Shown here: piece by piece, positions 165 to 19,929 of the stretch
Layout of the letters: each line of letters begins with the position of its first letter
Numbering within the stretch: the stretch's first letter is position 1
Virus record (IMG/VR): IMGVR_UViG_2718217636_000001
Length of the DNA: 21,707 nucleotides
Source: an uncultured virus (IMG/VR IMGVR_UViG_2718217636_000001)
Lineage: Duplodnaviria; Heunggongvirae; Uroviricota; Caudoviricetes
Direction: 5' to 3' (one strand)
Program-made: the position numbers and the translations under genes
The notes under the pieces: model-generated
Seen by the model: only the letters and a program-made list of their open reading frames with translations
Databases searched by the model: none
What the model was told of the DNA's origin: nothing

Positions 165-356
165 TGGTCCTTCCAACGTCAAAGAGGGGCAACGAGAGTA
201 GTCTCTATCATGCAAGCATTATCGCTAGGATGATGCGATCCTCACGGCGACCGAACGACTCCGATGACGCGTGTTCTGATGATCTTCACAGAGTGGGCCA
301 TTGCTCTTTTTTTCCCCACATGAGTACATTGACATGGACTTCCTCTGGAGCAGGGC

Positions 357-1226
357 ATGAACCGATCACCAAAGCGCGACGAAGTAAGTTCTGAGCATCG
401 AATAGCGAAACGCCTCCGTCGTCTTAGATCGCCGCAAAGGAAGCTCGGCAATAAGAGCAGGGCAAAAGTTGCACGAACTTGGATAGTAGGCGTCCTGGTG
501 GCCGCACTAGGAATAACGATCACAGATGCGACCACCGGCGCCCTCTCCACGGTCGCGTCCGGCATAAAGAGCAGGATTTTTGACGGACCTCCGGTCCGCG
601 TAACTAAAACCATCGATTTTGTTAGCCAGGAACGCGAACGCCTTCGCCGATCCTCCTATATTCTTCCTGGTAGATCAATTGCATCGATGGGTCCGCCACC
701 GAAGATCGATATGGAAGATTATGCGGCAAGAGCAGCCTGGGCTAAGCAAAACAATGCTGTAGATGCTTACAACTCCTACATCCGAGTAGTGGTTGATGCG
801 CCGCAATCTAAAACGGTCGTGTTGACCGGTTTGCGCGTACGAGTTCTACAGAGGCGTCCGCCGCCATCAGGTGTGGCTATAGATGCCATCGGTGCGGGCC
901 CGATAGTGACGCGCAGCTTCTTCGCTTCGCTAGACGAAGAACAATCGCGGATTGAATACATGGAGCCCGAGGAAATAGTGCCGGGCCAAGAGAGGGCTAT
1001 TGACTTTCCATTTCGGATCTCAAATACGGAGCCTGAGGTTTTCCTCATAATCACTGACGTCCAGAAGTTTGACGTCGACTGGCAAGCAGAGCTCACATGG
1101 GTGGCCGACGGCAAGGCGGGGCGATCAGTGATAGATGATGAAGGGAAGCCATTTCGGACAGCCTCAGCCGCAAACGCTCCCATGTATACACCAACAGCTA
1201 AAGGTTGGAAGAAGGTAGGAGATTAA
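357..1226 (+). CDS. Membrane-anchored hypothetical protein with a beta-rich C-terminal domain (low-GC insert)
   Basis: 289-aa ORF in visibly lower-GC DNA. Basic N-terminus, then hydrophobic TWIVGVLVAALGITI. The C-terminus (DFPFRISNTEPEVFLI...WQAELTW...IDDEGKPFRT) resembles the C-terminal domain of actinomycete HTH-TM proteins. Confidence 0.75.
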   Translation: MNRSPKRDEVSSEHRIAKRLRRLRSPQRKLGNKSRAKVARTWIVGVLVAALGITITDATTGALSTVASGIKSRIFDGPPVRVTKTIDFVSQERERLRRSSYILPGRSIASMGPPPKIDMEDYAARAAWAKQNNAVDAYNSYIRVVVDAPQSKTVVLTGLRVRVLQRRPPPSGVAIDAIGAGPIVTRSFFASLDEEQSRIEYMEPEEIVPGQERAIDFPFRISNTEPEVFLIITDVQKFDVDWQAELTWVADGKAGRSVIDDEGKPFRTASAANAPMYTPTAKGWKKVGD

Positions 1227-3477: not shown

Positions 3478-4097
3478 TTGCCATCCTTTCTGCTTGCGTT
3501 AACGGTCACGTCCTTGGTCCAGTCCTCCCACCGGCTGCCGTCCATGCCGACCCAGCCGGGGTTGACGACGTACAGACCCTCGCAAGCAATGGCGACGAAG
3601 TAGCCGACGTTCTGGTGCTCTGTGTCCTCCGCGCCGGGCTGGACGCCGCACACCGGGCAGGTGAGGGTCAGCCACTTCATGATCTTCTCGGGGTGCTCGT
3701 CGATGGCCTGGGCGAGGCAGGCGAGGTAGCCGGCGTCGTCGGCGAAGTACGTACGGCTGCTGACGATCTCCCCGATCCTGGCGCTGTGGTAGTTGTCTTC
3801 CATGCTGTCGATCCACCGCTCCTCGTGGTCGGAGAGGTAGGGGGATAGCGCGTCCGGGGTGACGCCCAGGTGGACCTCGAACTTCATCTCCCAGTCGTAG
3901 GTGACCACTTCCTCGACCCTGATGCGGATCGTGCGGGTCTCGCGGGGCAGGTTCTGCTCGACGAGGTACGGCGGGGACGGGGTGGGGCAGAAGGGGTTCG
4001 TGACGGTGGTGTGCCCCCACACATCAGGGCGGCCGTTCGCGGCCCGGTTGATGATGGGGGTCCTGCATCTGGTGCAGGTCGTTTTCGTGTTCTTCAT
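3474..4097 (-). CDS. Hypothetical protein with CxxC motifs
   Basis: 207 aa. RBS GAAGGAAG. CTRC...H...C and CPVC...H...C putative Zn sites. Confidence 0.75.
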   Translation of the reverse strand: MKNTKTTCTRCRTPIINRAANGRPDVWGHTTVTNPFCPTPSPPYLVEQNLPRETRTIRIRVEEVVTYDWEMKFEVHLGVTPDALSPYLSDHEERWIDSMEDNYHSARIGEIVSSRTYFADDAGYLACLAQAIDEHPEKIMKWLTLTCPVCGVQPGAEDTEHQNVGYFVAIACEGLYVVNPGWVGMDGSRWEDWTKDVTVNASRKDGK

Positions 4098-4117
4098 GGC
4101 TTCCTTCGGGTTGGATG

Positions 4118-4148
4118 AGCGGCGGGCGCTGGGTGGGCGCCCGCCGCT
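4118..4148. terminator. Intergenic hairpin
   Basis: AGCGGCGGGCGC-tgggtgg-GCGCCCGCCGCT, a perfect 12-bp stem just after the DUF2786 stop. Confidence 0.6.
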
Positions 4149-4153
4149 GGGGG

Positions 4154-4882
4154 TTAGGCGTTGATGGCGCGCCGGTCGCCGCCGAGGCGGGCACGGCCGC
4201 CGACGTCGGCGCGGTCGCCCGCGTCGCGTCCAGCGAGGAACGCGCCGTAGTCCTTGACCGGGCGGGCCTTGACGGTGCCGGTGTTGGGGGCCTTGGTCTT
4301 GAAGTACTGCTCGACGGCGGTCGCGCGGTCGCGTAGGACGAGTTCGGTTGACGGGCCGCCGTTGCTGGCGTCGGCCTCGGCCGCGGCCTGCTGGTTGGCT
4401 TCGCGCAGCTTCTCGCCGACGCGGCTGGCGAACCCTCGCATGAAAGCCTTGCGGGCGGGTGCACGGCCTCTACCGGCCGGGAGGATGGTGTTGACCTCGT
4501 TGCTCATCTGCAGCGACAGGGAGGCGTAGAGCATGGTCACGGCGTCGAGGTCGCTCGTGTGTCCGACGACCAGGACGTACGTGATGCCGTTGACCTTCCA
4601 TTGCACGGCGCGGCAGGTCTTGGCGTCGACGATGGAGCCGATGAGGTACAGGTGTTCGAGCTGGTAGGTCTTGACGTCAACGATGAGGACCGAGGTGCCG
4701 AGCTCGTCGGGGGTTTGTCCGGCGGCGGCGAGGTGGGCGCGTTCGACGTTGTACTTGGCCATGAGCGCCATGGCGCGCTCGCGGTGGACTTTGGCTTCTT
4801 CGGGGCTGGTGTTGGGGTGTTCGGCGACGGCGAGGAGTCGCCGGATGCGCTCGATGGTCTTTTCGGTTGCGGTGGTGGTCAC
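4154..4882 (-). CDS. DUF2786 domain-containing protein
   Basis: N-terminal 'IERIRRLLAVAEHPNTSPEEAKVHRERAMALMAKYNV' is the DUF2786 pattern. C-terminal 'AFMRGFASRV...G..AG..AD' is typical of these proteins. Start GTG 4882 after AGAAAGG. Confidence 0.85.
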   Translation of the reverse strand: MTTTATEKTIERIRRLLAVAEHPNTSPEEAKVHRERAMALMAKYNVERAHLAAAGQTPDELGTSVLIVDVKTYQLEHLYLIGSIVDAKTCRAVQWKVNGITYVLVVGHTSDLDAVTMLYASLSLQMSNEVNTILPAGRGRAPARKAFMRGFASRVGEKLREANQQAAAEADASNGGPSTELVLRDRATAVEQYFKTKAPNTGTVKARPVKDYGAFLAGRDAGDRADVGGRARLGGDRRAINA

Positions 4883-4972
4883 CGGTTGGTCGTGCCTTTC
4901 TTGGGTTGGTGCGAGCGATTTTGCTTGCGTGAGCTGGGTGGGCTCGCGCGTGCTGGTTTGTGGATCTTCCGT

Positions 4973-5001
4973 ATTCTGGCATGGTCGTTCCGTTTTCGCA
5001 A
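4973..5001 (-). promoter_or_regulatory. Putative housekeeping-sigma promoter for the DUF2786-to-exonuclease operon
   Basis: Minus strand TTGCGA-N17-CAGAAT, with TG one base before the -10. Confidence 0.45.
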
Positions 5002-5250
5002 CGAGCCCTAGGGCGTGCTGAAACACTCTCTGAGAGCGCGTGAGACGCGAGCCAGTCCCCCACGCACGCAAACCACGCTGAGAAGCGCTTACGGGGGCTC
5101 TCAGCTCCGCGTGCGCGCACTCTCCGCGCCACGACGGGCGGGAATCCGGCGACCGACACGCAAGCACCGTCACTTGCGGAATAAACCGAAGCGCGGGAAG
5201 GTAAGGTGCACTAACCCAACCGCCGCCCTGGCAAGGAGACACCGCCACCC

Positions 5251-5739
5251 ATGGCCCGCTCGATCAAAGCCGCAGCCACCCGCAAAACGCTAGTCACGCA
5301 AGCGAAACAGCAGGCCCCTCGTGTCCGCACCAAGGCGCGGCAGGACAAGCCCACGCTGTCCGCCCGCATCAGTCACCAGACCAACGAACGGCTCAGCATC
5401 GCCAACGAGGACACCGGCCTCGGCATCTCCGGCATCGTCGAAGCCGCCCTGACCGAGTACTTCGACTTCCTCGGCATCCCCGCCGACGTCGAACCGCCCC
5501 GCGCCCCAGACGGCAGCCGCCCCAAGCGGGAACGCACCCTCAAGAAGCGCATCCGCCGCGCCAGGGAAGAGGTCGACGAAGTACCGATCGCGCCGCGCAT
5601 CACCCGGCAGACGGACAACCGGCTTACGGTTGCGTGCCTGAACACCTCCACCGGCCCGCAGGACGTGGTGGAGACCGCGTTGAAGGCGTGGCTCATGCGG
5701 CACGGCATCCCGCTCTACCGCCCCACCCCCGGCACCTGA
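5251..5739 (+). CDS. Tandem ribbon-helix-helix (RHH)-like DNA-binding protein
   Basis: RBS AAGGAG. Two internal repeats, PTLSARISHQTNERLSIANEDTGLGISGIVEAALTEYFDFLGIP and VPIAPRITRQTDNRLTVACLNTSTGPQDVVETALKAWLMRHGIP, each with a beta-strand/helix/G-turn/helix RHH pattern. Confidence 0.7.
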   Translation: MARSIKAAATRKTLVTQAKQQAPRVRTKARQDKPTLSARISHQTNERLSIANEDTGLGISGIVEAALTEYFDFLGIPADVEPPRAPDGSRPKRERTLKKRIRRAREEVDEVPIAPRITRQTDNRLTVACLNTSTGPQDVVETALKAWLMRHGIPLYRPTPGT

Positions 5740-5931
5740 CAAAACAGGAGGGCGAGGTTGGGCCAGTAGCCGGGCCGGCCGCCGGGATCGCTCGCCGAGG
5801 ACCGGTTTCGGGCCGGACGTTCGGGGATGAGTCAGGGGCCCGGACGCGGCCGGATGAGGGGGACACGAGACGACCGGACGGCCGTCCGGTGCGTAGCATG
5901 GTGCTCCCCCCTGATGGCTGGAGGTCGTGCC

Positions 5932-6150
5932 ATGGACTGGGAGTTCTTTCGGCTCTATGCCTTGGTCGCGGCCGGGCTGGTCGTCGTGATCTTCATCCTG
6001 TTTGCGGTCATGGAGGCGACCGGGCCGGGGGTCTTCCTCCTGCTTCTGGTCGCCCTGGGGATCGCCGCGGCCAGCGAATCACGAGGGAAGAGGAAAGGGG
6101 GGCCCGGCGACGAGGACGGGTGGTCCAGCGACGCGGGCGGCGGCGAATAG
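5932..6150 (+). CDS. Small two-TM membrane protein
   Basis: GGAGG then ATG 5932. 72 aa with two hydrophobic segments and a polar tail. Confidence 0.65.
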   Translation: MDWEFFRLYALVAAGLVVVIFILFAVMEATGPGVFLLLLVALGIAAASESRGKRKGGPGDEDGWSSDAGGGE

Positions 6151-6227
6151 CCGTCCGGCCCAGGGGCGCCACCTTCACCGAAGCTTCTGCCGTTATCTAG
6201 GGTACTGGCGGGCCTGTTTCAACCAAG

Positions 6228-6265
6228 CGCCAGAGAGGCCAGCGCTTTCGCTGGCCTCTCTGGCG
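6228..6265. terminator. Probable bidirectional terminator
   Basis: Perfect 17-bp stem CGCCAGAGAGGCCAGCG-cttt-CGCTGGCCTCTCTGGCG between convergent genes. Confidence 0.75.
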
Positions 6266-6267
6266 TT

Positions 6268-6645
6268 TCAGATGCGGCGGGACCGCTTGATGAGCAGCTG
6301 CGCGTCAGCGTCGCTGAGTCGCCCGCCCTCCGGGACGCAGCCATGCTCGCACGGCATGCCCTCGGCCGCGCCCCACAAGCGGCAGATCAGCGGACGCAGC
6401 TCGTACGCCCGGCACCGACCGTCATCGCCCAGCGCCGCGCACGGCTCGGCCTCGGTCACCCGACTGACCCGCTCCCGCATCAAGGCTCCGACCGACGTCG
6501 GAAGCGGGAACCCGGCCTCGGCCATCCGCTGCGCCTCCCGCCGGCCCCCGGCGATGCTCGTGCAATGCTCCTGGCACAGGCCCTTGCAGCCCACGTCCGG
6601 GACCTTCGCGTACAGCTCCTGCAGCAGGACGTCCTGCCGGTCAGT
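6268..6645 (-). CDS. YkgJ-family (CxxCxxCC-like) cysteine-cluster protein; 5' end irregular
   Basis: CKGLCQEHC...C..L...GRCRAYELRPLICRLWG...C.HGC. The coding frame extends to 6645 (TDRQDVLLQELYAKVPDV), but ATG 6649 is one base out of frame. The only in-frame start is GTG 6594. Confidence 0.75.
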   Translation of the reverse strand, partial: TDRQDVLLQELYAKVPDVGCKGLCQEHCTSIAGGRREAQRMAEAGFPLPTSVGALMRERVSRVTEAEPCAALGDDGRCRAYELRPLICRLWGAAEGMPCEHGCVPEGGRLSDADAQLLIKRSRRI

Positions 6646-7018
6646 CCATCGGGTACTTGCCGACGTTGTAGTTGCCGCATCCGATCCGGCCGTCCCAATC
6701 GCACCACCCCTTCGGCCCGCCGATCCACGGCGAAGCGATGCGCGCGTTGCCCAGATACTCCAGCTGCAGGACTCCCACCCGCTGCCGCCACTCCCTCTTC
6801 CCTGCCCACGCCGACTTCTTCGTCTCGATGTCCGCGCTGAACGGCGGCTCGGCCGGCATGCCGTACTCGGCGGCCAGGCCCTCCACGGCCGCCTTCCACG
6901 CCCTGTCGTTCGTGCTCAGAAACCAGTCGTCAGTGCGTACCAGGATCTCGCTGGCCTGCTCGCGCGTCACCGGCTCGCCGACGACCAGGAGGCGCGGCCA
7001 CTTCGTCAGGTCGATCAT
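6641..7018 (-). CDS. Hypothetical protein, possibly C-terminally truncated
   Basis: GGAG then ATG ATG. Conserved-looking WPRLLVVGEPVT...ASPWIGGPKGWCDWDGRIGC, ending abruptly at GKYPMD*. Confidence 0.7.
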   Translation of the reverse strand: MIDLTKWPRLLVVGEPVTREQASEILVRTDDWFLSTNDRAWKAAVEGLAAEYGMPAEPPFSADIETKKSAWAGKREWRQRVGVLQLEYLGNARIASPWIGGPKGWCDWDGRIGCGNYNVGKYPMD

Positions 7019-7061
7019 CATTCTCCATTCGGGGGTTGATCGATTGTCGCGCTGTTCGAGA

Positions 7062-7499
7062 TCACAGCGAACCGAACAAGTCGAGCTGGTCGCCGCCGAC
7101 CGGAGCCTCCTCGGCGGCCTTCCGCACGGCCGCCATCGTGCCCACCGGCTGCGGCCGGTGCGTCCCCGGATCCACCTCGAAATGCATCTGGCAGATGTCG
7201 GCCCGGCGGCCCTTGTAGACCGCCGAATACCAGCCGCCACGGAGTGCCGTGGGGTGGTAGGCGATCTCCCGGCCGCGTTCGACGCTGTCGGCCGCCTCCT
7301 CCGCGATCAGCAGCATGGTCATGCAGTTCGTGTACTCGCAGGCGAGCACGACCATCGCGTCCAGCTCGGGCGCGTCCGGGTGCAGCGTGGCGACCAGCTC
7401 GCGGGCGTGCGCCACGGTGCGCACCTCGAACCGGTACATCTTCGTGTCGTCGGCCCACGGGCTCTTACCCTTCTCGTGCAGCCAGATCCACGCGCTCAC
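7062..7499 (-). CDS. Hypothetical protein with a C-terminal QLDLF beta-clamp-binding-like motif
   Basis: GGAGG plus GTG, GTGA overlap. 145 aa ending GDQLDLFGSL. Confidence 0.75.
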   Translation of the reverse strand: MSAWIWLHEKGKSPWADDTKMYRFEVRTVAHARELVATLHPDAPELDAMVVLACEYTNCMTMLLIAEEAADSVERGREIAYHPTALRGGWYSAVYKGRRADICQMHFEVDPGTHRPQPVGTMAAVRKAAEEAPVGGDQLDLFGSL

Positions 7500-8062
7500 T
7501 CGGCACCTCCCACGTGAAACTCCAGGTCAAGCGCCTCCTGCGCGGACCTCTGCGTCTTCTTCGTCTGGTAGTACGACGCGGCCAGGTCGTAGCCGCCGCC
7601 CGGCGCCCTACCGGGCGAGTGCCGGGAGAAGCGGGAGTCGGCCCGGATGGTGACGATCGGGCCGCCTGCCTCCAGCCAGCCCGGCGGGTAAGCCCGCTTC
7701 ACGTCGGACAGCCACCGCTCGTAGTTCGACTTCGACGGCTTCACGCCAGGCAGGTCGCGCCAGCCAGGCCAGGCGTGGTCGTGAGCGTCCTCGACGGCGT
7801 CCCGCTCCCGCTCGCGGGTCTCGCCCTCCCAGTCGCAGCCCAGGCACGCGCCCCGGTACAGCTGGTGCCACTTCGGCTCGTCAACGACGCGGAACAGGAT
7901 GGTCGGCCGGTGGTCCGGCGCGGTCGACGGGAACTCGTCGTTTCCGCGCACGTTCGCGCCCGGGTGAGCGAAGTAGATGCCCCACTGGCCGCGCCCCTCA
8001 CCGATCGGGAGCTGCCGGCGGGCGGCGTGGCGGGCCGCCGCTCCGCGAGACTCACCGCTCAT
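7496..8062 (-). CDS. DUF6349-like protein
   Basis: Start ATG 8062 after GGGAG. Motifs YRGACLGCDWEG...AVEDAHDHAWPGWRDLP...YPPGW...GGPI.T.R...RH.PGR.PGGGYDL. Confidence 0.7.
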   Translation of the reverse strand: MSGESRGAAARHAARRQLPIGEGRGQWGIYFAHPGANVRGNDEFPSTAPDHRPTILFRVVDEPKWHQLYRGACLGCDWEGETRERERDAVEDAHDHAWPGWRDLPGVKPSKSNYERWLSDVKRAYPPGWLEAGGPIVTIRADSRFSRHSPGRAPGGGYDLAASYYQTKKTQRSAQEALDLEFHVGGAE

Positions 8063-8522
8063 CGGACGCTCCCGGCGCGAGCGACCACAGGATCGCCTTC
8101 GGGGAGCCGGACTCACGAGTCTCGATCTCGTGCCGAACGAGGCCATCCCGTTCCAGGCTCACCAACGCTCTCGTTACGACCCACAGCTTCGGCATCCGAA
8201 TGGCTCGGGCGAGCATGAACGAGCTAATCCGAAGCTGTGGATACGCACGCAGGTGCGCTATCACCTGCGGCTTGATCTCGCGGTACAGGAAGTCTCTCTG
8301 ACCCCTGGCTCGCCGGTCGACATCGCCTTGCAGTTCCCGCACGTACCGCATCACGGTCCGCTCGTCGACCCCGATGCGGCTGGCGATCACAGCCGTGTCC
8401 GTGATGCCGACGCGCAGCAGCTCCGCGGCCTTCTTCTTCCGCTCAGCTCGCTTCCGCCGGACGACCGCGATAGCGGCCGCCCGCGAGTCGACCGTAGAGG
8501 CAGCTGCGTGCCTGTAACTCAC
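8052..8522 (-). CDS. HTH / winged-helix DNA-binding protein
   Basis: GTG 8522 (GTGA overlap, GGAGG). HTH 'TAVIASRIGVDERTVMRYVREL' plus a second wHTH 'SSFMLARAIRM...VTRALVSLERDGLV'. Confidence 0.75.
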   Translation of the reverse strand: MSYRHAAASTVDSRAAAIAVVRRKRAERKKKAAELLRVGITDTAVIASRIGVDERTVMRYVRELQGDVDRRARGQRDFLYREIKPQVIAHLRAYPQLRISSFMLARAIRMPKLWVVTRALVSLERDGLVRHEIETRESGSPKAILWSLAPGASDER

Positions 8523-8977
8523 TGCGGCTGCCCTTCCTCCACGTCGTCGAACGCCGCCACGACGGCTTCGACCGCGCCTTCGGCCGGCTGCAGCTCGGCG
8601 GCTGGCGGCTCCCAGTTGGGCCGGGACGCGACCATGGCCAGGTACAGCCAGGCCGGCAGCTGCGCCCACACCATGGGGTCGGCGCTGTACTTGCGTTCAG
8701 TGACGGTCATCAGACCGGCCGATCGGTCCGCCTTCCGGTTCGGGCCGCTCAAGTCGTACCGGACGAGGGTCCAGGCGCGATCCGGCGTCCATTCCCACTG
8801 GTACGTGGCCTTGTGGGGGTAGAAGTCACGCTGGCCAGGCCGGACGACGGCCTCGGCGGCGGCGAAGTGGTCGTGAACGGTGACCGTCACCTTCTTCCGA
8901 GCAACCATCACCCAGCCAGGCGCGGCCGCGGGGCTGTCGGCGGTCGACGGGGGGTCGAACAGGGTGTCGCTGTCCAT
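8519..8977 (-). CDS. Hypothetical protein
   Basis: GAAAGGAA plus ATG 8977. 152 aa with high-GC3 codons. Confidence 0.7.
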   Translation of the reverse strand: MDSDTLFDPPSTADSPAAAPGWVMVARKKVTVTVHDHFAAAEAVVRPGQRDFYPHKATYQWEWTPDRAWTLVRYDLSGPNRKADRSAGLMTVTERKYSADPMVWAQLPAWLYLAMVASRPNWEPPAAELQPAEGAVEAVVAAFDDVEEGQPQ

Positions 8978-8990
8978 GAGGGGTTTCCTT

Positions 8991-9752
8991 TCAGAGAAGG
9001 GCGAGTTGTTCATGGGCGGGGCGTCGCGAGGCTGGGACCGGCGGGGTTCTCCGCCAGGAGGCGAGGTCGTATCCGCCGTCCCACGGGTCCAGGTCGTGCG
9101 GGGGCTGGTCGAAGTCGAACAGGCCGGGCGGCGGCGGCTCGTCGTCGCGGAGCAGCGCGTCACGCCAGCCGAGAATGGTGGGGATCGACCGGTCCGGCCC
9201 GGCGCGCTGCGGGTAGGTGCCGTCAACAGACAGGGCCCAGCGGACCGTCCGGTAGCGGAGCAGCGAGTTGACGCGGCCGACATGCGTCCACAGGCCGATC
9301 GAGTTGGCGACTCGTCCGAGGTTCTCGGCGGCGTCCGACAGCTTCCACGCCGTGGTGCCGCCGACGAACAGGCAGTCGAAGTCCTCCCAGTCCCACAGCG
9401 GGCAGAACTCCATGTAGTCCTGCGCGACCAGCGCGGCCGGGAGACCCATGGCGCGGATCTCGCGCAGCATGTGCCGTGACCGCGCCACCGTGGCGAACGC
9501 GTTCCCGACCACGTCGGGCGCGGTCACGAACAGGCACCGGTCGGCGTGCGGCACGAACCGCTCCAGCCACCGCAGGTACTTCCGGTCGTCCGGGTACTTG
9601 CCGCTGAACACCGCGTTGTCCACGCCGAACAAGCCCTGCTTGGGGACGCCGTTGCCGGAGGCCGGGTTGAGGATCGCCCCCAACCGGCCGCCGACGATCT
9701 CGGCGCGGATGGACGGGGTCGACGGCGGCGCGAGGTAGAGCGGCCCGCTCAT
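8991..9752 (-). CDS. Putative TGT/DpdA-like (guanine transglycosylase-fold) TIM-barrel protein
   Basis: Ordered motifs VDNAVF, APDVVG, VAQD, LFVGG, WTHVGRVNS and SVDGT parallel the TGT motifs DSGGF, D, VQG, AIGG, HxLG and D.D. ATGA overlap with the upstream gene. Confidence 0.6.
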   Translation of the reverse strand: MSGPLYLAPPSTPSIRAEIVGGRLGAILNPASGNGVPKQGLFGVDNAVFSGKYPDDRKYLRWLERFVPHADRCLFVTAPDVVGNAFATVARSRHMLREIRAMGLPAALVAQDYMEFCPLWDWEDFDCLFVGGTTAWKLSDAAENLGRVANSIGLWTHVGRVNSLLRYRTVRWALSVDGTYPQRAGPDRSIPTILGWRDALLRDDEPPPPGLFDFDQPPHDLDPWDGGYDLASWRRTPPVPASRRPAHEQLALL

Positions 9753-10219
9753 TGGTCGTGAGCCGATTTGCGGAGCGCGGCCCGCAGCTCAGCGCGCCTG
9801 CCCGCGCCGAGGTCCCGGATGCCGCGCACCTCTTCCTCGCTGAGCTTCGCCAGGTCTCGGAGGGTGAAGATGCCTGCCCGCGCCAACGTGTTCACGAGCG
9901 CGACGGACACCCCAGGCAGGTCGCTGACGTTGGTTTTGACCGGCCGCAAGGAGTAGCGCACCAGGTCGGCCGTGGTCGTGGTCTGCGCGGCGAGCTGGTC
10001 CACGATCTCGTCGCGCCAGGCGCGGACCTGCCCGCCGTACTCGGCCTCCTCCTGGTGCTTGGGGCACATCCCGGGCTCGGCTCTGTCGCAGCCGAAACAG
10101 TCGCCCAGCCACGGGCGCTCCTCGGCGTCGTCGGCGTAGTCGCCGAGCCGGTCGAGGAGGTGATCCCAAACCTCGTGGGTCAGCGTGACGGTCAGTTCGC
10201 GGTTCAGGTCGGTGGCCAC
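9749..10219 (-). CDS. Protein with a C-terminal RNA polymerase alpha-CTD-like (HhH) domain
   Basis: GGAGG plus GTG 10219. CFGC...CPKH in the N-terminal part. C-terminal VSDLPGVSVALVNTLARAGIFTLRDLAKLSEEEVRGIRDLGAGRRAEL matches the alpha-CTD pattern. Confidence 0.75.
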   Translation of the reverse strand: MATDLNRELTVTLTHEVWDHLLDRLGDYADDAEERPWLGDCFGCDRAEPGMCPKHQEEAEYGGQVRAWRDEIVDQLAAQTTTTADLVRYSLRPVKTNVSDLPGVSVALVNTLARAGIFTLRDLAKLSEEEVRGIRDLGAGRRAELRAALRKSAHDQ

Positions 10220-10236
10220 GAAAACCTCCAGGTCAG

Positions 10237-10662
10237 TTAAGCGCGCTCGCCGCGGCAGAGGTGGCACCACTCGGAGCGGGCCACGGACGTGCAGCCGTGG
10301 CAGTGGGTGCCGTGCAGGGTCAGCAGGTGCAGCTGGAAGGCGTTGAGCGCGCCGCCCTGATTCAGCGCGGCCACGTGGGGGTCGTGCGGCCAGGTGTGCG
10401 GCAGGTGGCATTTGAGGTAGGCGTTGCCGAACGCGGGCCAGCGCCGCCCGGTGCCGACCGTCACTCCGGCTACCGTGATCTCCACCCGCTCACTGCCGAG
10501 CGTCACGTCGATGCCGTCGATGGGCCGGTGGTCGTGCACCATGTGGCCGACGCACGGGGCAGGGCGGCCGCCAGGCCAGCCGAGCTGGGCGTTGATCGCG
10601 TCGATCGCGGTGACAACCGCCTCGGGGACGTCGTCGATGCAAGGTCCGCTGTTCCACGTCAT
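10237..10662 (-). CDS. Cys/His-rich hypothetical protein
   Basis: GAAGGAG plus ATG 10662. 141 aa with C-terminal CHGC...CHLC. Confidence 0.7.
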   Translation of the reverse strand: MTWNSGPCIDDVPEAVVTAIDAINAQLGWPGGRPAPCVGHMVHDHRPIDGIDVTLGSERVEITVAGVTVGTGRRWPAFGNAYLKCHLPHTWPHDPHVAALNQGGALNAFQLHLLTLHGTHCHGCTSVARSEWCHLCRGERA

Positions 10663-10733
10663 GCGAAGCTCCTTCGGGGATGGTGGCGCTAGCCGTACCG
10701 CTTGCGACAACGGCCAGCGCCCGAGGTGAGAGA

Positions 10734-12353
10734 TCAGCAGGGGATGACGACGGCGACCGTGAGGACCGACAGCCCGGCCGCCGCGAACGCGTCCTTGGGG
10801 AGCGGGATGATCTCGCCTTCCCAGTCCTCGACGAGCTGCCGGAAGTCCTGAGCGGCCTTGACCTGGCTGAAGGTGATCCCGGCGCCCATGACGGCGACGA
10901 GCCGGCCGCCGGGCTTCACGAACTGCAGGGCGTGGACGACGTGCGCGATGTCCTGCCCGCGTGAGAACGGCGGGTTCATCAGAACCCGATCAAACCGGTC
11001 CGGGAAGTGGCTCGGCGCGGCCTGCAGAAAGTCGCCCGTGGTTAGGCCGACGATGCCGGGCACGTCGAGCAGATCCTTAGACAGCTGCGGATACCGCTTG
11101 ATGCAATGAACCTCGCAGCCAGCCGCGGCCGCCGCCTTGGCGATGGCGCCAGCACCTGCGGAGGGCTCTAGCACCACCATGCCGGGCTCCAGGCCGGCGG
11201 CGTCCAGTATCCGCGCCACCACGGCGGGCGGAGAGAAGAACGCTTCGGAGTCGCGCGGCACCTCCGGCAACGCCGCCTCGATCTTCGCGGCGAGCTCGTC
11301 CATGTTCATCTTCGGTACCTCGACCTTCGGCCTGGCCTGGCCCTTCTTCTTGGGCCGGTTCGTCGTGGTGATGGCCGGTCCGTCCTCGCCGTGCGGGCAG
11401 TCGACGGCCAGGATGTCGGTGAACTTCACCTTGTCCGGCCAGGAGTAGCCGGACTCGACGGCGACGGTCACTTTGTTGACCTTCACCACGGTGCGGCGAC
11501 GGCCTCGCATCCAGTACGTGACCATGTCGCCGACGTGCACATTGCCCTTGTGCCACATGACGTACTCGCCCGCCTCGATCGCGGCGGCGAGCTGCGCCCG
11601 GTCATATTCGAGCTGGTTGTCGAGCTGCGCCTTGCGGGCGAGCAGCCGCTCCCGGTAGTCGCCCTGGGCGGGCGCGTGGTCCTCGATGTAGCGCGGGTTC
11701 CCTCCGTAGTCGAGGTGCCTGCGCTCGTAGCCGTCCAGGCCCTTCTGGATCTGGCGCAGCTCCGCCTCAGCCGTCTCGATCCGGCGGCGGGTCACCGCCG
11801 GGGTCGCGGAGCGCCGCATCTGGGAGCCGACAGCGTTCGCGCGCTCGGCCGCGCTCTGCGCGGCGTCGTTCTCGCGGACGCTCTTGCTCATCGCCTGGTG
11901 CATGCGCTTCTGGTCGGCGCGCGCACCCCGCTCGGAATGGTGACCAACCAGGATCGGCTGGCCGCCCGCGAACCGCTCGCTCAGCTGCTCCGCCCGGTCG
12001 TGCGCGGCCGCCGCCGCGCCGGCGTGCCGGTCCGCTTTCCGTTCCAGCGCGTCGCGCCGGTCTTCCAGCCGGTCGGCCTTGTCCGCCAGGACCTGGGCGC
12101 GGTCGCGGAAGGTGTCGTCAATCTCGACCTCGACCTCGTACCCGGCCGCGCGCAGCGCCTTCGCCGCGGCGCTGATGGCGTACCGGTCGGCGACCTGGTC
12201 ACGGCTGTTGCGCAGGCCGAGCATCCGGATGGACGGGAAGAACTTGAAGCCGCCGTTCTCCCACAAGCGGATGATCTCGTACACGCCGTCGCCCTTGCGG
12301 GTGCCGTACACGAGGGTGCCGTCCTCGTGGTTGTGCTTGATGGTGATGGTCAA
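10734..12353 (-). CDS. DUF3560 domain plus amino (N6A/N4C-type) methyltransferase fusion
   Basis: DUF3560 signature GQPILVGHHSE. C-terminal MTase motif I VLEPSAGAG and motif IV FDRVLMNPPF. Start TTG 12353 after GAAGAGGG. Confidence 0.85.
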   Translation of the reverse strand: MTITIKHNHEDGTLVYGTRKGDGVYEIIRLWENGGFKFFPSIRMLGLRNSRDQVADRYAISAAAKALRAAGYEVEVEIDDTFRDRAQVLADKADRLEDRRDALERKADRHAGAAAAAHDRAEQLSERFAGGQPILVGHHSERGARADQKRMHQAMSKSVRENDAAQSAAERANAVGSQMRRSATPAVTRRRIETAEAELRQIQKGLDGYERRHLDYGGNPRYIEDHAPAQGDYRERLLARKAQLDNQLEYDRAQLAAAIEAGEYVMWHKGNVHVGDMVTYWMRGRRRTVVKVNKVTVAVESGYSWPDKVKFTDILAVDCPHGEDGPAITTTNRPKKKGQARPKVEVPKMNMDELAAKIEAALPEVPRDSEAFFSPPAVVARILDAAGLEPGMVVLEPSAGAGAIAKAAAAAGCEVHCIKRYPQLSKDLLDVPGIVGLTTGDFLQAAPSHFPDRFDRVLMNPPFSRGQDIAHVVHALQFVKPGGRLVAVMGAGITFSQVKAAQDFRQLVEDWEGEIIPLPKDAFAAAGLSVLTVAVVIPC

Positions 12354-12382
12354 CGTGCCCTCTTCTGGGTTGGTCGGGGGGA

Positions 12383-12409
12383 GGGGCGGTGGTGGGTGGC
12401 CGCCGCCCC
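12383..12409. terminator. Intergenic hairpin
   Basis: GGGGCGGTGG-tgggtgg-CCGCCGCCCC, a 10-bp stem with one imperfect pair, after the stop at 12422. Confidence 0.5.
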
Positions 12410-12421
12410 GTGACGGATGGG

Positions 12422-12697
12422 TCAGGACCGCTGGTAGGTCCAGCCGGGCGGGAGCGACACCGGCCGGCTGCAGTCGGTGCAGGTGAACCCCGCGTGCCCG
12501 GACGTCCGGTCGTCGTCGGAGACGGTGGTCGCGCTGACGACCTTGTCGCCAGCGATATAGATGGCGTGATGTTCGCCGTCCGTGGTGGTCTCCGCGATCT
12601 CCTCGCTGCCGCACGAGCTGTACGGGCAGGCCAGCGACATGCGCAGGAACACGGTCGGCGCGCTGTCGCGGCCGAGCAGCGGCGTGGCCGCGATCAC
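12422..12697 (-). CDS. Small zinc-ribbon hypothetical protein
   Basis: GTG 12697 in a GTGA overlap. 91 aa with CPYSSC...CTDC. Confidence 0.65.
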   Translation of the reverse strand: MIAATPLLGRDSAPTVFLRMSLACPYSSCGSEEIAETTTDGEHHAIYIAGDKVVSATTVSDDDRTSGHAGFTCTDCSRPVSLPPGWTYQRS

Positions 12698-15645: not shown

Positions 15646-16281
15646 GCGGTACACGTACTCGTGGATCCAGGCCAGGCCGGTGTTGTCGAGGTCGTACTGC
15701 GCCCGGGTCACGGTGACGAGGCGAGCATGGCGTCCGGACGGGATATTACCTCCGGAGCGGAGAGTCGGCGCAGCACCCTGAGCAGGGTCTCTCAGATCTC
15801 GGCAAGGGTTTAGGGTTCAACCCTGGGCATAGTGATAATCATGCGCACCTCTCTGCTAGCGGTGTTGCTTGCATCTGTGGCGAGGAACAGCTGCGGACGT
15901 AATTCCGGGAGCGGTGGCATGGTTGCGCGACCTCCGATGTTCCGCCGCATTTCCGCAGGCCAGAAGCTTGTTTGCTGAGATCAGCTTGCCATAAAGTTAT
16001 ATCGTTTGCAAAACGACCCTTTGACGTTGGGAAACGCGCTCCTCAGAGCGCGCGTGAGCGCTCCGAGGAGCGTTCCCACCAAGCGCACGAGACGCCACGA
16101 CTCCGGAATGGCGCCCGAATGTCGTCGGGTGGTGAGTGGCTGAGCGTAAGGCATCCCGTCTGCCATCGACCCAGGCAACCTGCAGCAGAACACCCCCGCC
16201 GCCGCCCACCCGGCCGTTACTATTGGCATCAAATTGGAAGGTGCCAAGCGTTGGGACATGTTAAGCCGGGCTTGCACCTCC

Positions 16282-16370: not shown

Positions 16371-17369
16371 TTGCTGCGACAAACATGGAGGAGGCGCATC
16401 CGTCGCTGGCGGGCGGGTCTAGCCCTTCTGCTGGCCGGCATGATATGCCTCGCGGCATCGTTCATTTTCCAGGATTCGCCCTGGTACTCAAGCGCCCTGA
16501 CTGAAGTTGGTGCTACATTCCTGCTCTTCGCACCTCTATTGATGCTGCAACGCCGCATTGAGAAGAGATTTCATCTGGTTGAGACAGGTCAACAAGCTAT
16601 CGAAGATCGACAAAACAGGACCATAAACGAAATTGCAGCCCTGTCGGAGGAAGTAGCCCAAAATAAGGACGATATCCAACGAACCCTAGATCAGCTCTCA
16701 GAGGCTGTGTTTGAACGTCTACAGACAGCCCGAACAAAGGACAAGGAAAGGTTTGCGGCCGTCAGTGCCAATCCTACCTTTGAGTCTCTGGGTGACGCTC
16801 TGCAACGCGCCCGAGAACTGGGGCTAATATCTGATCAAGGATGCAGAGTGCCCTTACGGGAAACGCCCCTCTTCGTGAGATTTCACGCGAATATGCCTCA
16901 TGACGTACAGCTAACCCTAGAAGACATGGCAGGCAATGCCATCCATACCGCATACTGGGCTCACGACAATAGCGCTGAGGCCGTTTTGGTGGATATCATC
17001 GAGAAAGTGCAACTGATCGGACAGTATCCAGGAGACGTGGCGTTCTATCCAACACATATATTTGTCGACCTTCGCAACTTGCTGGATCTAGCTCATCGTC
17101 ATTCGACCGGGGAAAGTCGAATGCGCAACCCTCTGGGCCCGCTAATACAATTCTGCGATCCCCAATGGGTCATCACAGAAACAAAGGTTATGGCCATTGA
17201 TGAGGGCTATACGATAGAAGCCCATCGGTTGAACGAGATGGATTGGTACGATCACGTGCGCCCTAAGGGTTGGGCCGATCCCACCTCTCTCTTTGATGCC
17301 CTCGAAAGCGCTCGCGCCCTGTACCGCAACGGTCGGCTTGCCGTCTATCCTCCCGATCCTCCCTTCTAG
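16371..17369 (+). CDS. Membrane protein: two N-terminal TM helices, coiled coil and globular domain (low GC)
   Basis: GGAG plus TTG. Hydrophobic AGLALLLAGMICLAASFIF and ALTEVGATFLLFAPLLML. Heptad-like INEIAALSEEVAQNKDDIQRTLDQLSE. Confidence 0.8.
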   Translation: MLRQTWRRRIRRWRAGLALLLAGMICLAASFIFQDSPWYSSALTEVGATFLLFAPLLMLQRRIEKRFHLVETGQQAIEDRQNRTINEIAALSEEVAQNKDDIQRTLDQLSEAVFERLQTARTKDKERFAAVSANPTFESLGDALQRARELGLISDQGCRVPLRETPLFVRFHANMPHDVQLTLEDMAGNAIHTAYWAHDNSAEAVLVDIIEKVQLIGQYPGDVAFYPTHIFVDLRNLLDLAHRHSTGESRMRNPLGPLIQFCDPQWVITETKVMAIDEGYTIEAHRLNEMDWYDHVRPKGWADPTSLFDALESARALYRNGRLAVYPPDPPF

Positions 17370-17445
17370 AATCGTGGCTTTGGGCCCGGGGTAGATGGCT
17401 CAATCATAGAAAATCACATTATTTTTTATTGAAAGAAGTATCTGA

Positions 17446-18339
17446 GTGGCAGAAGTCCGTTTCAAGGCGTACGAGATATATACACGCACGAGAGTGGAGG
17501 TCAACGATGCCATCATGGCGCTTTTGGCAGGATCCAGACTCGCGGCACACACACTTCAACTGACAAGTGGCTCCCAAAAGCTTCTCCCCGAGATTTTTCC
17601 TGCCGTCGACCATATTACGAGATTCAATTTGCAGAGCGAAACCGCCAGAGAATTGCTTCTGAATGCAGACGCTTACCTTGGCGCCGTGACCATCCCTTAC
17701 GCATTGGCAGTCCACGAAGACTTCGTATCTGTCGCATTAGACTTGGTAAAGCGCGCGGGCATGCCCCTGCTGAGCCTGGGTAAGCCGATAAAGGCGTGGA
17801 ATATGCATGAAACCTTATTTCGTTCGCTCGGTGCGCCTCTGCCTGCAGCAACCCTTTCGCAATTCCACCTCCTCCGACATTTGCGCAATGCATTGATTCA
17901 TGAAGGGGGTGCAGTATCTAGTCAATTGATCGACGCAGTTAACGGTATGCCAGGAGACGTGACGGTCGATTGGGAGCTCCTTACCGGACGTCATCCGCAG
18001 GACATTTTATCCTCTTCGACTATCGTCTTTACCGCGAATGATATATTCGCATCCTTTGCAATAAGTAAAAGGCTGGGCCGAGACATCAATTCCGCACTAC
18101 AAATCGGTCTGCCTTCGAATGTCTGGGTAGAGCTGGCTGTAGAGCATTTCTTAGATGATCCCGCAAGCACCGGCAGAACCCGTAATAGCGACCAATGGAT
18201 GAGGGCGCTATGGGGCTACGCCCGTAGAGTGTACAGAGAGTTGAACCTTCCTGAGGGCGAGTTGGAACGGGCGGCCAGAACTATGGGAGTTTGGACGCGG
18301 CCAGCAGGCTCAGTGCCGCCTCGCAGAAGAAGGAAGTGA
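17446..18339 (+). CDS. Putative HEPN-domain ribonuclease (low GC)
   Basis: Helical-looking 297-aa protein with the Rx4H motif LRNALIHEGG (17884-17901) and an upstream helix glutamate (VHEDFV). Confidence 0.7.
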   Translation: MAEVRFKAYEIYTRTRVEVNDAIMALLAGSRLAAHTLQLTSGSQKLLPEIFPAVDHITRFNLQSETARELLLNADAYLGAVTIPYALAVHEDFVSVALDLVKRAGMPLLSLGKPIKAWNMHETLFRSLGAPLPAATLSQFHLLRHLRNALIHEGGAVSSQLIDAVNGMPGDVTVDWELLTGRHPQDILSSSTIVFTANDIFASFAISKRLGRDINSALQIGLPSNVWVELAVEHFLDDPASTGRTRNSDQWMRALWGYARRVYRELNLPEGELERAARTMGVWTRPAGSVPPRRRRK

Positions 18340-18470
18340 GAAAAAGGGGGCTCTTCCTATTGAGCTACATCCAGCAAACCACTGGAGCCGGGACTCGAAC
18401 CCGGGTCGCCACCTTTCTGTGAGAGACTCCGGCTGCGAGCCGACTAGGGCTTGGTCCCTGTCTCCCTGCT
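18303..18470 (-). ncRNA. yrlA: Y RNA-like (YrlA-type) circularly permuted tRNA-mimic RNA
   Basis: Minus-strand order: T-arm CCGGG-TTCGAGT-CCCGG (18404-18388); acceptor-like stem CTCCAGT/GCTGGATG closed by a GGTTT loop; TA plus D-arm GCTC-AATAGGAA-GAGC (18365-18350). Closing stems AGAAAGG/CTTTTTCT, GGAGT/ACTTC, GTCG-CTCGCAG/CTGCGAG-CGGC and AGCAGG/CCTGCT. Confidence 0.75.
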
Positions 18471-18475
18471 TTTGC

Positions 18476-18484
18476 AGCATAGCA
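18476..18484 (-). promoter_or_regulatory. Putative extended -10 promoter for the Y-like RNA
   Basis: TGCTATGCT (TGnTAnnnT) ends a few nt upstream of the AGCAGG that pairs with the RNA 3' end. Confidence 0.45.
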
Positions 18485-18813
18485 GATACGTCGGAACGGC
18501 AGAACTGATTAGTTGTTCCGTCTTTGTTACGTCACACCCATGAAAGGCGGCGGAACATGGCGAACGAGATTTGGCCAGCTCAGTGACCTGCCAACCGTAG
18601 CACCGACAGGTCGCGAAGCCAGGCCGGCGCTGGATACCGGAAGAACAGGTTCGGGTAGCGGTCGCGACCTGAAGCGCTCACGCGCGATTCTGGCCGCGCG
18701 TAGACGGAAGCAACTGCTCCCGCCATCGCAGGTGGAGGATACCCGCCCACTCCCGATGGCGAGATGAGCCCGATCGCAACCGTTCCGCAAGGCCCGGCTT
18801 CTACGCTCGGCGT

Positions 18814-19929
18814 ATGACGGAGAAGCGTCGACGCCTGCCCTCCCAGCGCACAATCCTGATGGTGGCCGCTGGGTTGCTCCTCGCCGGACTCGTCTGGGTG
18901 CTGGGGCCCGGTGCTCGATGGGTTGTTGACCTTGATGTGGACGTCACCCAATTGCCGGAGAAGGATCTCGCGACTGCGGCCGACGCCGTACGCGGGCGGG
19001 CACTCGCGATTGCCACCGGATTGGTCGCGTTGGCCGCTGTGTACTACACGGCACGCAACGCCGAAACCGCCCGCCGGGCCGTCGAGCTAACCCAGCAAAC
19101 CTCAACCCGCACTCTGGAGCTGACCGAGCAAGGCCAGGTGACCGACCGCTACACCAAAGCCATCCAGCAACTCGGCGACTCCGAAAACCTCCACATCCGC
19201 ATCGGCGGCATCTATGCGCTTGAACGCATCGCCCGCGACTCCGAACGCGACCACAGCACCGTTCAGGAGGTCCTTACCGCCTTCGTACGCGAGTACGCAC
19301 CCGAACCCGAACAGTCAGCAGCCGAAGAAGGCGCGACGCAGGTCGCGCTCCCGCGCAAGGTACCCGCAGACGTTCAAGCTTCTCTCACGGTGCTCGGCCG
19401 GGCGAACATGTTGGACGCGAACCTGACCGGCGCATACCTGGCCCGCGCGGAGTTGCCCGGCGCGGATCTGTCCCGCGCAAAGCTGACTGGCGCGGACCTG
19501 ATCAACGCGAAGCTGACCGGCGCAAAGCTGACCGGCGCGGACCTGGCTGGCGCGGACCTGACCGCTGCGATGCTGGGCGGTGCGAACCTAGCGGGCGCAC
19601 GCCTAGCCGATGCGGACCTGACAGGTGCGACGCTGGGCCATGCGGACCTGCCCGGCACGGACCTGACCTACGCGACGCTGACGGGCGCTAACCTGACCGG
19701 CGCTAGCCTGACCGGCGCTAACCTAGCCGGCGCGGACCTGACCGATGCGAAACTGATCGGCGCGAGGCTGGTCGGCGCAAAGCTGACCGGTGCGTGCCTG
19801 GCTGGCGCGGACCTGGCTGGCGCACGCTTGACCAGGGCGCAGTTTGAATCGGCAGCAGCGAAGCAGCGCGCAAGCCCGCCAGCCCGTTTCCTCGACGATC
19901 CACCCCAGGAGCAGGCCGAATCGTCATAG
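18814..19929 (+). CDS. Pentapeptide repeat-containing membrane protein
   Basis: N-terminal TM segments, conserved EQGQVTDRYTKAIQQLG...RIGGIYALERIARDS block, then many A[DNK]L[TA]G pentapeptides. Confidence 0.9.
   Translation: MTEKRRRLPSQRTILMVAAGLLLAGLVWVLGPGARWVVDLDVDVTQLPEKDLATAADAVRGRALAIATGLVALAAVYYTARNAETARRAVELTQQTSTRTLELTEQGQVTDRYTKAIQQLGDSENLHIRIGGIYALERIARDSERDHSTVQEVLTAFVREYAPEPEQSAAEEGATQVALPRKVPADVQASLTVLGRANMLDANLTGAYLARAELPGADLSRAKLTGADLINAKLTGAKLTGADLAGADLTAAMLGGANLAGARLADADLTGATLGHADLPGTDLTYATLTGANLTGASLTGANLAGADLTDAKLIGARLVGAKLTGACLAGADLAGARLTRAQFESAAAKQRASPPARFLDDPPQEQAESS

Follow-up and report, generated by a model that had tools for sequence, protein, structure and literature searches.

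This analysis concerns a 21,707-nucleotide (nt) stretch of DNA from an uncultured virus of the Caudoviricetes (IMG/VR record IMGVR_UViG_2718217636_000001), referred to here as the window. Within it, the gene for a 297-amino acid (aa) protein, open reading frame B (ORF B), lies tail-to-tail with the gene for a structured small RNA. Comparisons across genomes indicate that the two form a self-contained two-part cassette and are inherited together. The protein is predicted to adopt a HEPN fold, and the RNA combines a 5′ three-way junction with a permuted mimic of tRNA. We propose, with a probability of about 0.5, that the RNA binds ORF B and restrains an RNase that would target tRNA-like substrates, by a logic like that of type III toxin–antitoxin or abortive-infection systems. 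A first-pass annotation of the window, made from its sequence alone, had grouped both genes with a third, ORF A, which is treated below as a neighbor. The cassette comprises the following features.

17445–18486, both strands: cassette of two parts, about 1.04 kb: ORF B and, convergent on it, the RNA gene with its −10 element; block of blastn homology with locus L001
17446–18339, plus strand: ORF B, 297 aa, with RNALIH at residues 147–152
18341–18466, minus strand: core of the structured small RNA, about 126 nt; the covariance-model match spans 18331–18476

The strongest single result for the cassette is the comparison with L001, which belongs to a second genome of the same genus (L049 and L001 are the same DNA). 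When L001 is aligned with the whole window by blastn, a single match is returned at 17445–18486, with 80% identity over 1046 nt. This block runs from the start codon of ORF B through the −10 element of the RNA and is low in GC in both genomes. The pairing recurs among 25 related loci fetched from species-representative genomes. Covariance model R1 finds the RNA (E ≤ 1.8e-12) in the window and in 21 of these 25 loci, and also in family genomes at L050 and L051, always convergent on ORF B. ORF B-like sequence of any extent occurs in 28 distinct loci; 24 of these also have the RNA, again convergent every time. Three of the loci that lack it (L022, L023, and L025) carry only fragments of ORF B; the fourth, L010, carries a full-length gene. 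A pattern scan of metagenome contigs that started from the RNA returned eight loci, all scoring 93–123 bits with covariance model R2. ORF B is adjacent and convergent in six of them (tblastn, E 1e-35 to 7e-87), and the remaining two contigs end on the ORF B side, 16 nt (L063) and 137 nt (L068) past the RNA. The frame at the end of the L068 contig resembles the ORF B C-terminus by eye, an unscored likeness. Beyond close kin, an all-against-all ORF comparison of 26 loci finds no common gene besides ORF B. The window's own genome, 100% complete by marker genes, holds one copy of the RNA and one of ORF B. These data tie the RNA evolutionarily to ORF B, two of the three parts whose co-occurrence the first-pass annotation had proposed to check. 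The fallback of that annotation was that cargo had been inserted beside an RNA gene already in place; since the RNA travels together with ORF B, this is rejected as well.

The annotation had also described ORF B as a 297-aa HEPN protein with the sequence RNALIH, and both the coordinates and the fold agree with this description. HEPN domains have a four-helix up-down core with inserts between helices 2 and 3, and their Rx4-6H motif lies at the end of core helix 3 or the start of the next loop, typically with a polar residue after the arginine, as set out by Anantharaman et al. 2013 (PMC3710099). The AlphaFold2 model of ORF B (pLDDT, the predicted local distance difference test score, 94.9; pTM, the predicted template modeling score, 0.90) is all-helical and contains such a four-helix core with inserts between helices 2 and 3. 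Its motif has a polar residue after the arginine and ends helix 134–153, ahead of a G154-G155 loop, as assigned by DSSP. R147-N148-x3-H152 is invariant in 58 of 58 aligned relatives (alignment A1), where the consensus reads LLRxxRNxxxHxGG and other invariant positions include H35, E91, and R144. Among the ORFs of the loci, 21 of 22 contain R..RN...H, and the sole exception is truncated. For the conserved acidic residue that HEPN domains have in helix 2 close to the motif, the invariant E91, within helix 74–103, is a candidate; an Ex3[KR] pattern is not obvious. The best structural matches of ORF B are HEPN toxins. Foldseek returned no match to the PDB at E ≤ 1e-3, and a profile search of PDB sequences with A1 gave just two chance-level matches (E 0.6). 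Together, the model and the alignment show a HEPN fold whose RNxxxH motif is intact and invariant, in a protein family not described before. We infer that ORF B is a metal-independent RNase, probably acting on tRNA or other elbow-bearing RNA.

No model in Pfam, PADLOC, NCBIfam, or PHROGs matches ORF B. Against the HEPN families of Pfam (e.g., PF18735 RiboL-PSP-HEPN, PF05168 HEPN, and Abi_2), none of the 58 relatives scores below E 0.1, the best being one relative at E 0.13 with HEPN_Cthe2314. One UniRef relative named “RiboL-PSP-HEPN domain-containing” and ESM Atlas neighbors at 0.80–0.85 serve as leads only. The family is sizable. A word-indexed search found 193 homologues; with an exhaustive profile search, the number of cluster representatives is 376 at E ≤ 1e-3 and 185 at E ≤ 1e-30. 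Nearly all relatives are stand-alone proteins of about 280–300 aa. Longer ones (P0218, P0152, P0096, P0160, and P0164) contain no informative fused domain; one has a Bactofilin tail. The basic tail GSVPPRRRRK is limited to the closest subclade of ORF B, where it is conserved as protein in A1.

Among characterized HEPN systems, the type VII toxin–antitoxin pair HepT-MntA (HEPN-MNT; PDB entries 5yep, 6m6w, and 7bxo) differs in several respects. ORF B has double the length, contains insertions, and carries an additional helical region at its C-terminus (residues 224–297); the sequence identity is 7–8%. Unlike HepT, ORF B has no MNT nucleotidyltransferase gene beside it in the window, and none is conserved across the loci. 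Unlike the anticodon nucleases PrrC and RloC and the Gifsy-1 HEPN nuclease HepS, ORF B lacks an ATPase or sensor domain, and no sequence relationship to them was detected.

The RNA is read from the minus strand, and its parts are listed here in transcript order.

18476–18484, minus strand: extended −10-like element TGcTATGCT upstream of the RNA; inferred promoter, with the start inferred near 18470
18466–18460 paired with 18427–18421 (P1), 18458–18447 (H1), and 18443–18429 (H2), minus strand: 5′ domain, in which P1 encloses H1 and H2 as a three-way junction
Between P1 and P2, minus strand: linker CACAGAAA, with the conserved CACAGAA
18418–18409 paired with 18349–18341, minus strand: P2, AGAAAGG.GG paired with CCCCUUUUU; closes the tRNA-like module
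18350–18408, minus strand: permuted tRNA-like module; local alignment with Rfam YrlA, model positions 25–83
18408–18405, minus strand: variable-loop-like CGAC, part of the module
18404–18388, minus strand: T arm with loop UUCGAGU, part of the module
18387–18368, minus strand: closed acceptor-like hairpin, then a UA linker, part of the module
18365–18350, minus strand: D arm with loop AAUAGGAA, part of the module

With a T-arm pattern, the element was recognized in 12 of the 25 related loci, each time immediately beyond ORF B and on the strand opposite to it. The seven-helix structure was derived from a MAFFT alignment of 13 copies (A3), and the window RNA scores 127.8 bits with R1 and 123.4 bits with R2. 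Across the copies, the H2 loop reads UUCAnGA. In A3, which was not fitted to any model, the covariation score is 0.261, compared with 0.180 in shuffled alignments, and 0 of 500 shuffles scored as high. Twenty pairs in A3 changed on both sides where 14.9 were expected, a count reached in 6 of 500 shuffles. In the model-fitted alignment of 24 RNAs (A6), the score is 0.347 versus 0.171; both members have changed in 24 of 39 pairs, and 81% of cells are paired, a figure that falls to 54–56% on shifting the partner by one column. Because a fitted alignment leans toward its model, A3 gives the safer result of the two. All six pairs of P1 show changes on both sides in A6, as do all six of the acceptor hairpin; the T arm pairs in 100% and the acceptor hairpin in 91% of cases across the 24 RNAs. 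The fold is assigned to the minus strand because G-U pairs are frequent.

The conserved T-loop sequence (UUCGA or UUCAA) and the GG of the D loop are both kept in 14 of 24 RNAs and both lost in eight; GG alone is kept in two and the T loop alone in none. This joint keeping and loss is what a T-loop/D-loop elbow contact would give, with the caveat that the sequences are not independent. RNAs with decayed T and D loops retain the 5′ domain, as seen in H2 and CACAGAA. In 24 of 25 loci, the RNA is preceded by a TAnnnT hexamer; in 19 its position is nearly fixed, about 2–10 nt ahead of the first base of the model, and in 15 of 25 it has the TGn-extended form. This hexamer suggests that the RNA has its own promoter, with a start near 18470. 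A generic sigma-70 scan did not call this promoter, nor did a generic terminator scan call P2. The RNA gene contains no tandem repeats. Rfam at its gathering threshold gave no matches in the window. Canonical tRNA identity was considered and rejected; the acceptor stem is loop-closed, there is no anticodon arm, and ARAGORN reports no tRNA genes in the window. These observations indicate a covarying, independently promoted structure of two modules, a 5′ three-way junction specific to the family and a permuted tRNA mimic of the YrlA type. On the alignments, the RNA keeps a T-loop/D-loop elbow and lacks both an anticodon arm and a free acceptor end. The YrlA match and the R1 and R2 scores uphold the first-pass description of a tRNA-like, anticodon-less, minus-strand RNA convergent on ORF B.

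The closest described RNAs are the bacterial Y RNAs. A permissive Rfam search returns YrlA (RF02553) at 18348–18410 with 23.8 bits and E 0.019, covering model positions 25–83 of 114; the Rfam gathering score for this family is 69 bits. HEPN-linked RNAs from seven loci behave similarly, five scoring 28.6–36 bits and two giving no match at E ≤ 0.1. In YrlA as in the window RNA, a variable-loop-like linker is followed by a T arm, a closed acceptor stem-loop, and a D arm, and a stem in the anticodon-stem position closes this circularly permuted tRNA-like module; each gene adjoins that of a dedicated protein. They differ in their partners. The window RNA converges on the gene of a HEPN protein, and a search for TROVE (Rsr/Ro60) finds no gene in the window's complete genome, whereas the same search is positive in a Deinococcus radiodurans control. 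The part outside the tRNA-like module also differs, being a 5′ three-way junction in the window RNA and, in YrlA, a helix formed by the 5′ and 3′ ends. Unlike YrlA, HEPN-linked RNAs score 23.8–36 bits, below gathering. We conclude that the RNA behaves as a tRNA mimic of the YrlA type and that a relation to the YrlA family is probable; it lacks the Rsr partner and the Rfam score expected of a member. A search of the window's own genome for the YrlA family gave no matches at E ≤ 0.001.

Weaker matches to R1 and R2 (36–52 bits) occur in other genomes of the class and family, in 14 of 150 genomes in one survey and 36 of 150 in another. These were rejected as family members, being tandem tRNA genes or Rsr-linked Y RNAs. 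All 15 weaker non-tRNA matches examined adjoin a TROVE ORF, and they score 31.5–56 bits with Rfam YrlA where tested. The Rsr-linked Y RNAs share mainly the tRNA-like module with the window RNA, and their 5′ parts fit the model poorly. The Ro-binding motif GNCGAAN0-1G occurs in one of 24 HEPN-linked RNAs and does not discriminate, since it is present in only 4 of 15 Rsr-linked controls. In related actinobacteria, Rsr genes (L030, G091:C1; L055, G239:C33; and L029) are accompanied by 2–3 tandem Y-RNA-like copies of 31–56 bits. All of these copies fall below the gathering score, so the Rfam YrlA model under-detects actinobacterial Y RNAs. The search of Chen et al. 2014 covered genomes with Ro60 orthologues (PMC4201824), a scope that may explain why the HEPN-linked branch went unseen.

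The cassette is present in many actinobacteria and moves horizontally among Actinomycetota. ORF B is rare and patchy in distribution; its relatives are found in 3 of 400 family genomes and in none of 150 other genomes of the class, and the viral contigs searched contain none. Its neighbors were surveyed within two genes of the cassette at 19 other loci (70 genes). The cassette often lies among restriction, Abi, and transposon genes. Restriction and defense neighbors include a type ISP/IIG restriction-modification enzyme (L002), a type I HsdR (L008), an Mrr-helicase and NTase-HEPN (L011), AbiTii with an IetS-like protease (L006), GmrSD/NsnA (L003), and DUF4365 (L007). Transposases or integrases adjoin it in L004, L009, L014, and L017, and L001 contains a fragment of pSAM2-type RepSA as well as a tRNA gene. 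PADLOC models at E ≤ 1e-8, among them those for type I and IIG restriction, AbiTii, IetS, and NsnA, match neighbors in 12 of the 19 loci, a count that has no background rate and in which two matches (TniQ and an oxidoreductase) are doubtful as defense. None of the 70 neighbors is a TROVE gene. In the Streptomyces locus L003 (6023–7929, plus strand), what follows the cassette is the GmrSD/NsnA-like gene and a second, unrelated HEPN gene with a weak RiboL-PSP-HEPN match (E 4e-5). L017, from a Candidatus Baltobacteraceae metagenome-assembled genome labeled as outside Actinomycetota, has the cassette beside a transposase and an RHS-repeat protein, consistent with horizontal transfer.

Our studies allow a mechanism to be proposed. 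ORF B would be a HEPN RNase acting on tRNA or other elbow-bearing RNA. The RNA would bind ORF B directly and keep it inactive as a pseudo-substrate without a cleavable part, thereby serving as a type III-like antitoxin, as RCd22 does for the HEPN toxin AbiF. Loss or titration of this short-lived RNA, through phage shut-off of host transcription or loss of the cassette, would free the nuclease, and growth would stop. Known type III systems encode the RNA ahead of the toxin and on its strand, often in tandem repeats that the toxin processes. ToxIN-type systems pair a protein endoribonuclease, the activity predicted for ORF B, with a dedicated RNA gene; unlike ToxIN, the cassette has another toxin fold and an RNA gene that lacks tandem repeats and is convergent rather than upstream. 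The cassette has in common with type III systems that a toxin-like gene is consistently found next to the gene for a dedicated RNA. One precedent is AbiF, which the noncoding RNA RCd22 neutralizes by direct binding (PMC12373285). Both systems couple a HEPN-family protein to a dedicated structured noncoding RNA on mobile or defense DNA, and in the cassette, as in AbiF, the RNA would neutralize the protein by direct binding. Unlike AbiF, ORF B has no Abi_2 match; the window RNA is unrelated to RCd22, has no Rfam abiF match at the gathering threshold, and is a tRNA mimic that lies downstream and convergent. For YrlA, Hughes et al. 2020 propose that competitive inhibition of an anticodon nuclease could be a function of its tRNA-like domain (PMC7790460).

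Several observations weigh against the antitoxin proposal. The RNA is convergent in every locus, tail-to-tail with ORF B, a layout unlike that of known type III systems. In eight of the 24 RNAs, both the T and the D loop are degenerate, yet the associated ORFs retain the motif, which weakens a strict tRNA-decoy reading. L010 (Frankia sp. AgB1.9; 3941–4960) encodes a full-length ORF B relative with RCMRNCQIH intact, and no RNA was found in its 8.9-kb locus even with filters off; a DUF4238 gene lies downstream of ORF B. An ORF B without its RNA is unexpected for an unguarded toxin. Conversely, the genome G283 carries an orphan RNA (L053, G283:C10, 1501–1641, minus strand; 86.7 bits) in a locus with no ORF B. 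This copy is flanked by a MazG-like gene and an HNH_2 gene. Three Nocardia loci (L015, L018, and L021) lie among housekeeping genes, and the tally of PADLOC-matching neighborhoods, 12 of 19, is without a background rate.

The main rival of the antitoxin reading is that the RNA acts as a Ro-independent, Y-RNA-like tether. In the account of Chen et al. 2014 from which this logic derives, a Y RNA tethers Rsr to PNPase (PMC4201824). By analogy, the 5′ junction would bind ORF B while the tRNA-like module docks on a tRNA-handling machine or substrate, so that the HEPN RNase would be directed to particular RNAs in surveillance, processing, or guided effector action rather than in a toxin–antitoxin pair. 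The tRNA-like part is the one held in common with Rsr-linked Y RNAs, all 15 weaker matches examined adjoining TROVE genes, and the partner-specific part differs. Survival of the 5′ domain where the T and D loops have decayed also favors a tether, and an intact ORF B without RNA, as in L010, is easier to tolerate. However, the patchy, horizontally moved distribution and the defense-island neighborhoods fit conflict systems better than housekeeping, and no third partner gene is conserved across the loci. We consider a tether possible but rather unlikely. It is improbable, to a greater degree, that the element acts mainly in cis, either terminating transcription in both directions or regulating the ORF B transcript as a convergent or antisense element, and that no free small RNA binds protein. 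The U-run of P2 (18345–18341) does begin 2 nt past the ORF B stop codon (TGA, 18337–18339), the distance from the stop codon to the end of P2 is 0–8 nt in eight loci, and the A-tract/U-tract stem resembles a bidirectional terminator. However, a terminator would not require some 126 nt, four additional covarying helices, tRNA-type T and D loops, or a conserved −10 element of its own, and the simple terminator scan did not call P2. The same gap ranges from −23 to +65 nt over the 20 loci with intact ORFs, and an antisense overlap is therefore not a feature of the family. The first-pass annotation had placed a 37-nt overlap of the RNA with the end of ORF B and had made the GSVPPRRRRK tail antisense to the 3′ stem of the RNA. 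Neither claim was confirmed. The conserved structure stops at P2, past the TGA; the purine-rich segment at the 5′ end of the RNA pairs internally as P1 and not with the 3′ tail; and the stretch 18296–18475 folds no better than shuffles (z 0.05).

Two further explanations would separate the RNA from ORF B or add a part to them. One is that the RNA is a genuine Rsr/Ro60 Y RNA, or the remnant of a decayed tRNA gene or integration site, lying beside ORF B by chance. YrlA is the best Rfam match, the region is mobile-like (a DUF3560-methylase, DUF2786, and DUF6349), and L001 has its RepSA fragment and tRNA gene. This explanation is exceedingly improbable; it is already refuted for this genome by the lack of TROVE, against a positive control, and by the L001 block. 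The scores are below Rfam gathering, ARAGORN finds no tRNA, the arm order is permuted, and the conserved 5′ domain and co-inheritance with ORF B likewise speak against it. The other is the three-part system of the first-pass annotation, in which ORF A would be a membrane sensor or effector acting with the HEPN protein and the RNA.

16371–17369, plus strand: ORF A, 332 aa, with an N-terminal transmembrane helical hairpin, a long helix to residue 133, and an alpha/beta C-terminal domain

The trio has in its favor that ORF A and ORF B are on the same strand, 76 nt apart, with the same anomalous GC content at third codon positions (GC3, 0.55), and that inverted repeats at 15937–15953 and 18542–18558 bracket all three parts. 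The relatives tell otherwise, and the comparisons suggest that the trio is largely refuted; we regard it as very improbable. Relatives of ORF A occur in 3 of the 400 family genomes, as do those of ORF B, and the two share no genome except the window's own. Only two homologues of ORF A were found in a set of 5.8 billion proteins. Its relatives adjoin unrelated genes (HTH_31/DUF5753 and others), and neither the RNA nor a HEPN gene is present at their loci. When A1 was compared by hhalign with the genes beside ORF A relatives, no relationship emerged (probabilities 3% and 0.1%). The L001 homology stops at the start of ORF B and leaves out ORF A, and the comparison of 26 loci yielded no other common gene. 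The description of ORF A itself as a 332-aa protein with two transmembrane segments and a coiled coil is sound in so far as the AlphaFold2 model (pLDDT 79.8) contains two N-terminal hydrophobic helices and the long helix to residue 133. The four family libraries (Pfam, PADLOC, NCBIfam, and PHROGs) give no match to ORF A, a fold search with the whole model returns generic helical hairpins only and nothing informative, and an Atlas search gives only low scores (0.76).

HEPN toxins, RNA antitoxins, and Y-RNA tRNA mimics are already known; what is new here is the combination of HEPN with a tRNA mimic, the architecture of the RNA, and its independence of Ro. The literature searched, subscription journals and supplements being outside its scope, gave no earlier account in which a HEPN gene is coupled with an RNA that is Y-like or mimics tRNA. 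Bacterial Y RNAs carry a tRNA-like domain whose role has been a question since 2014, and Hughes et al. 2020 offer inhibition of an anticodon nuclease as speculation (PMC7790460). A YrlA-type mimic tied to one small HEPN protein, without Ro60, reduces this question to a two-component system of about 1 kb that is amenable to expression, mutation, and reconstitution. Two families are newly added as well, one of proteins (376 cluster representatives) and one of RNAs, neither of which is reported by Pfam, NCBIfam, PADLOC, PHROG, or Rfam at curated threshold. Both occur in defense islands of Actinomycetota, a phylum whose defense repertoire is poorly charted. If the antitoxin reading is true, the cassette would lengthen the short list of RNA-controlled HEPN toxins, now represented by AbiF-RCd22. 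A more tentative and somewhat unlikely proposal is that the cassette is the founding example of Ro-independent Y-like ribonucleoproteins, a YrlA-type mimic captured as antitoxin or pseudo-substrate of a HEPN tRNA nuclease in a mobile two-part anti-phage module. In that case, Rsr-linked Y RNAs and HEPN-linked RNAs would have a tRNA-elbow scaffold in common, on which one protein-binding module was exchanged for another as the two diverged.

The surroundings of the cassette were also characterized. The low-GC plus-strand island named in the first-pass annotation is evident in the composition profile, with GC of 0.51–0.53 at 16401–18400 and mostly 0.66–0.72 in the rest of the window. Both ORF A and ORF B contribute to it, and the GC3 of neighboring genes is 0.80–0.93. 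The island lies in DNA that resembles a mobile element, because a run of plasmid- or ICE-type (integrative and conjugative element) genes is present in the window. The other features are as follows.

18814–19929, plus strand: pentapeptide-repeat protein, 371 aa (PF00805, E 2.3e-54), with an N-terminal membrane/bPH_10-like region; directly past the RNA promoter
357–1226, plus strand: 289-aa ORF without a Pfam match, in a second low-GC stretch (0.53–0.58) at window positions 1–1200
4154–12614, minus strand: plasmid-/ICE-type gene run with DUF2786/DUF7168, DUF6349, an RNA-polymerase-alpha-CTD-like (C-terminal domain) protein, and a 626-aa DUF3560 protein with a methyltransferase tail

A 17-nt segment within ORF A (17079–17095) matches the acceptor-3′/D-arm segment of the RNA (18361–18377) at 16 of 17 bases. 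The match is in the same sense, so the ORF A and RNA transcripts would not pair there, and it is probably due to chance. The inverted repeats at 15937–15953 and 18542–18558, which flank ORF A, ORF B, and the RNA, are 17 nt long and 94% complementary. A second pair, at 16034–16062 and 18673–18701 (29 nt, 76% complementary), flanks the low-GC island. The two pairs could be the ends of a larger insertion that carries both cargoes.

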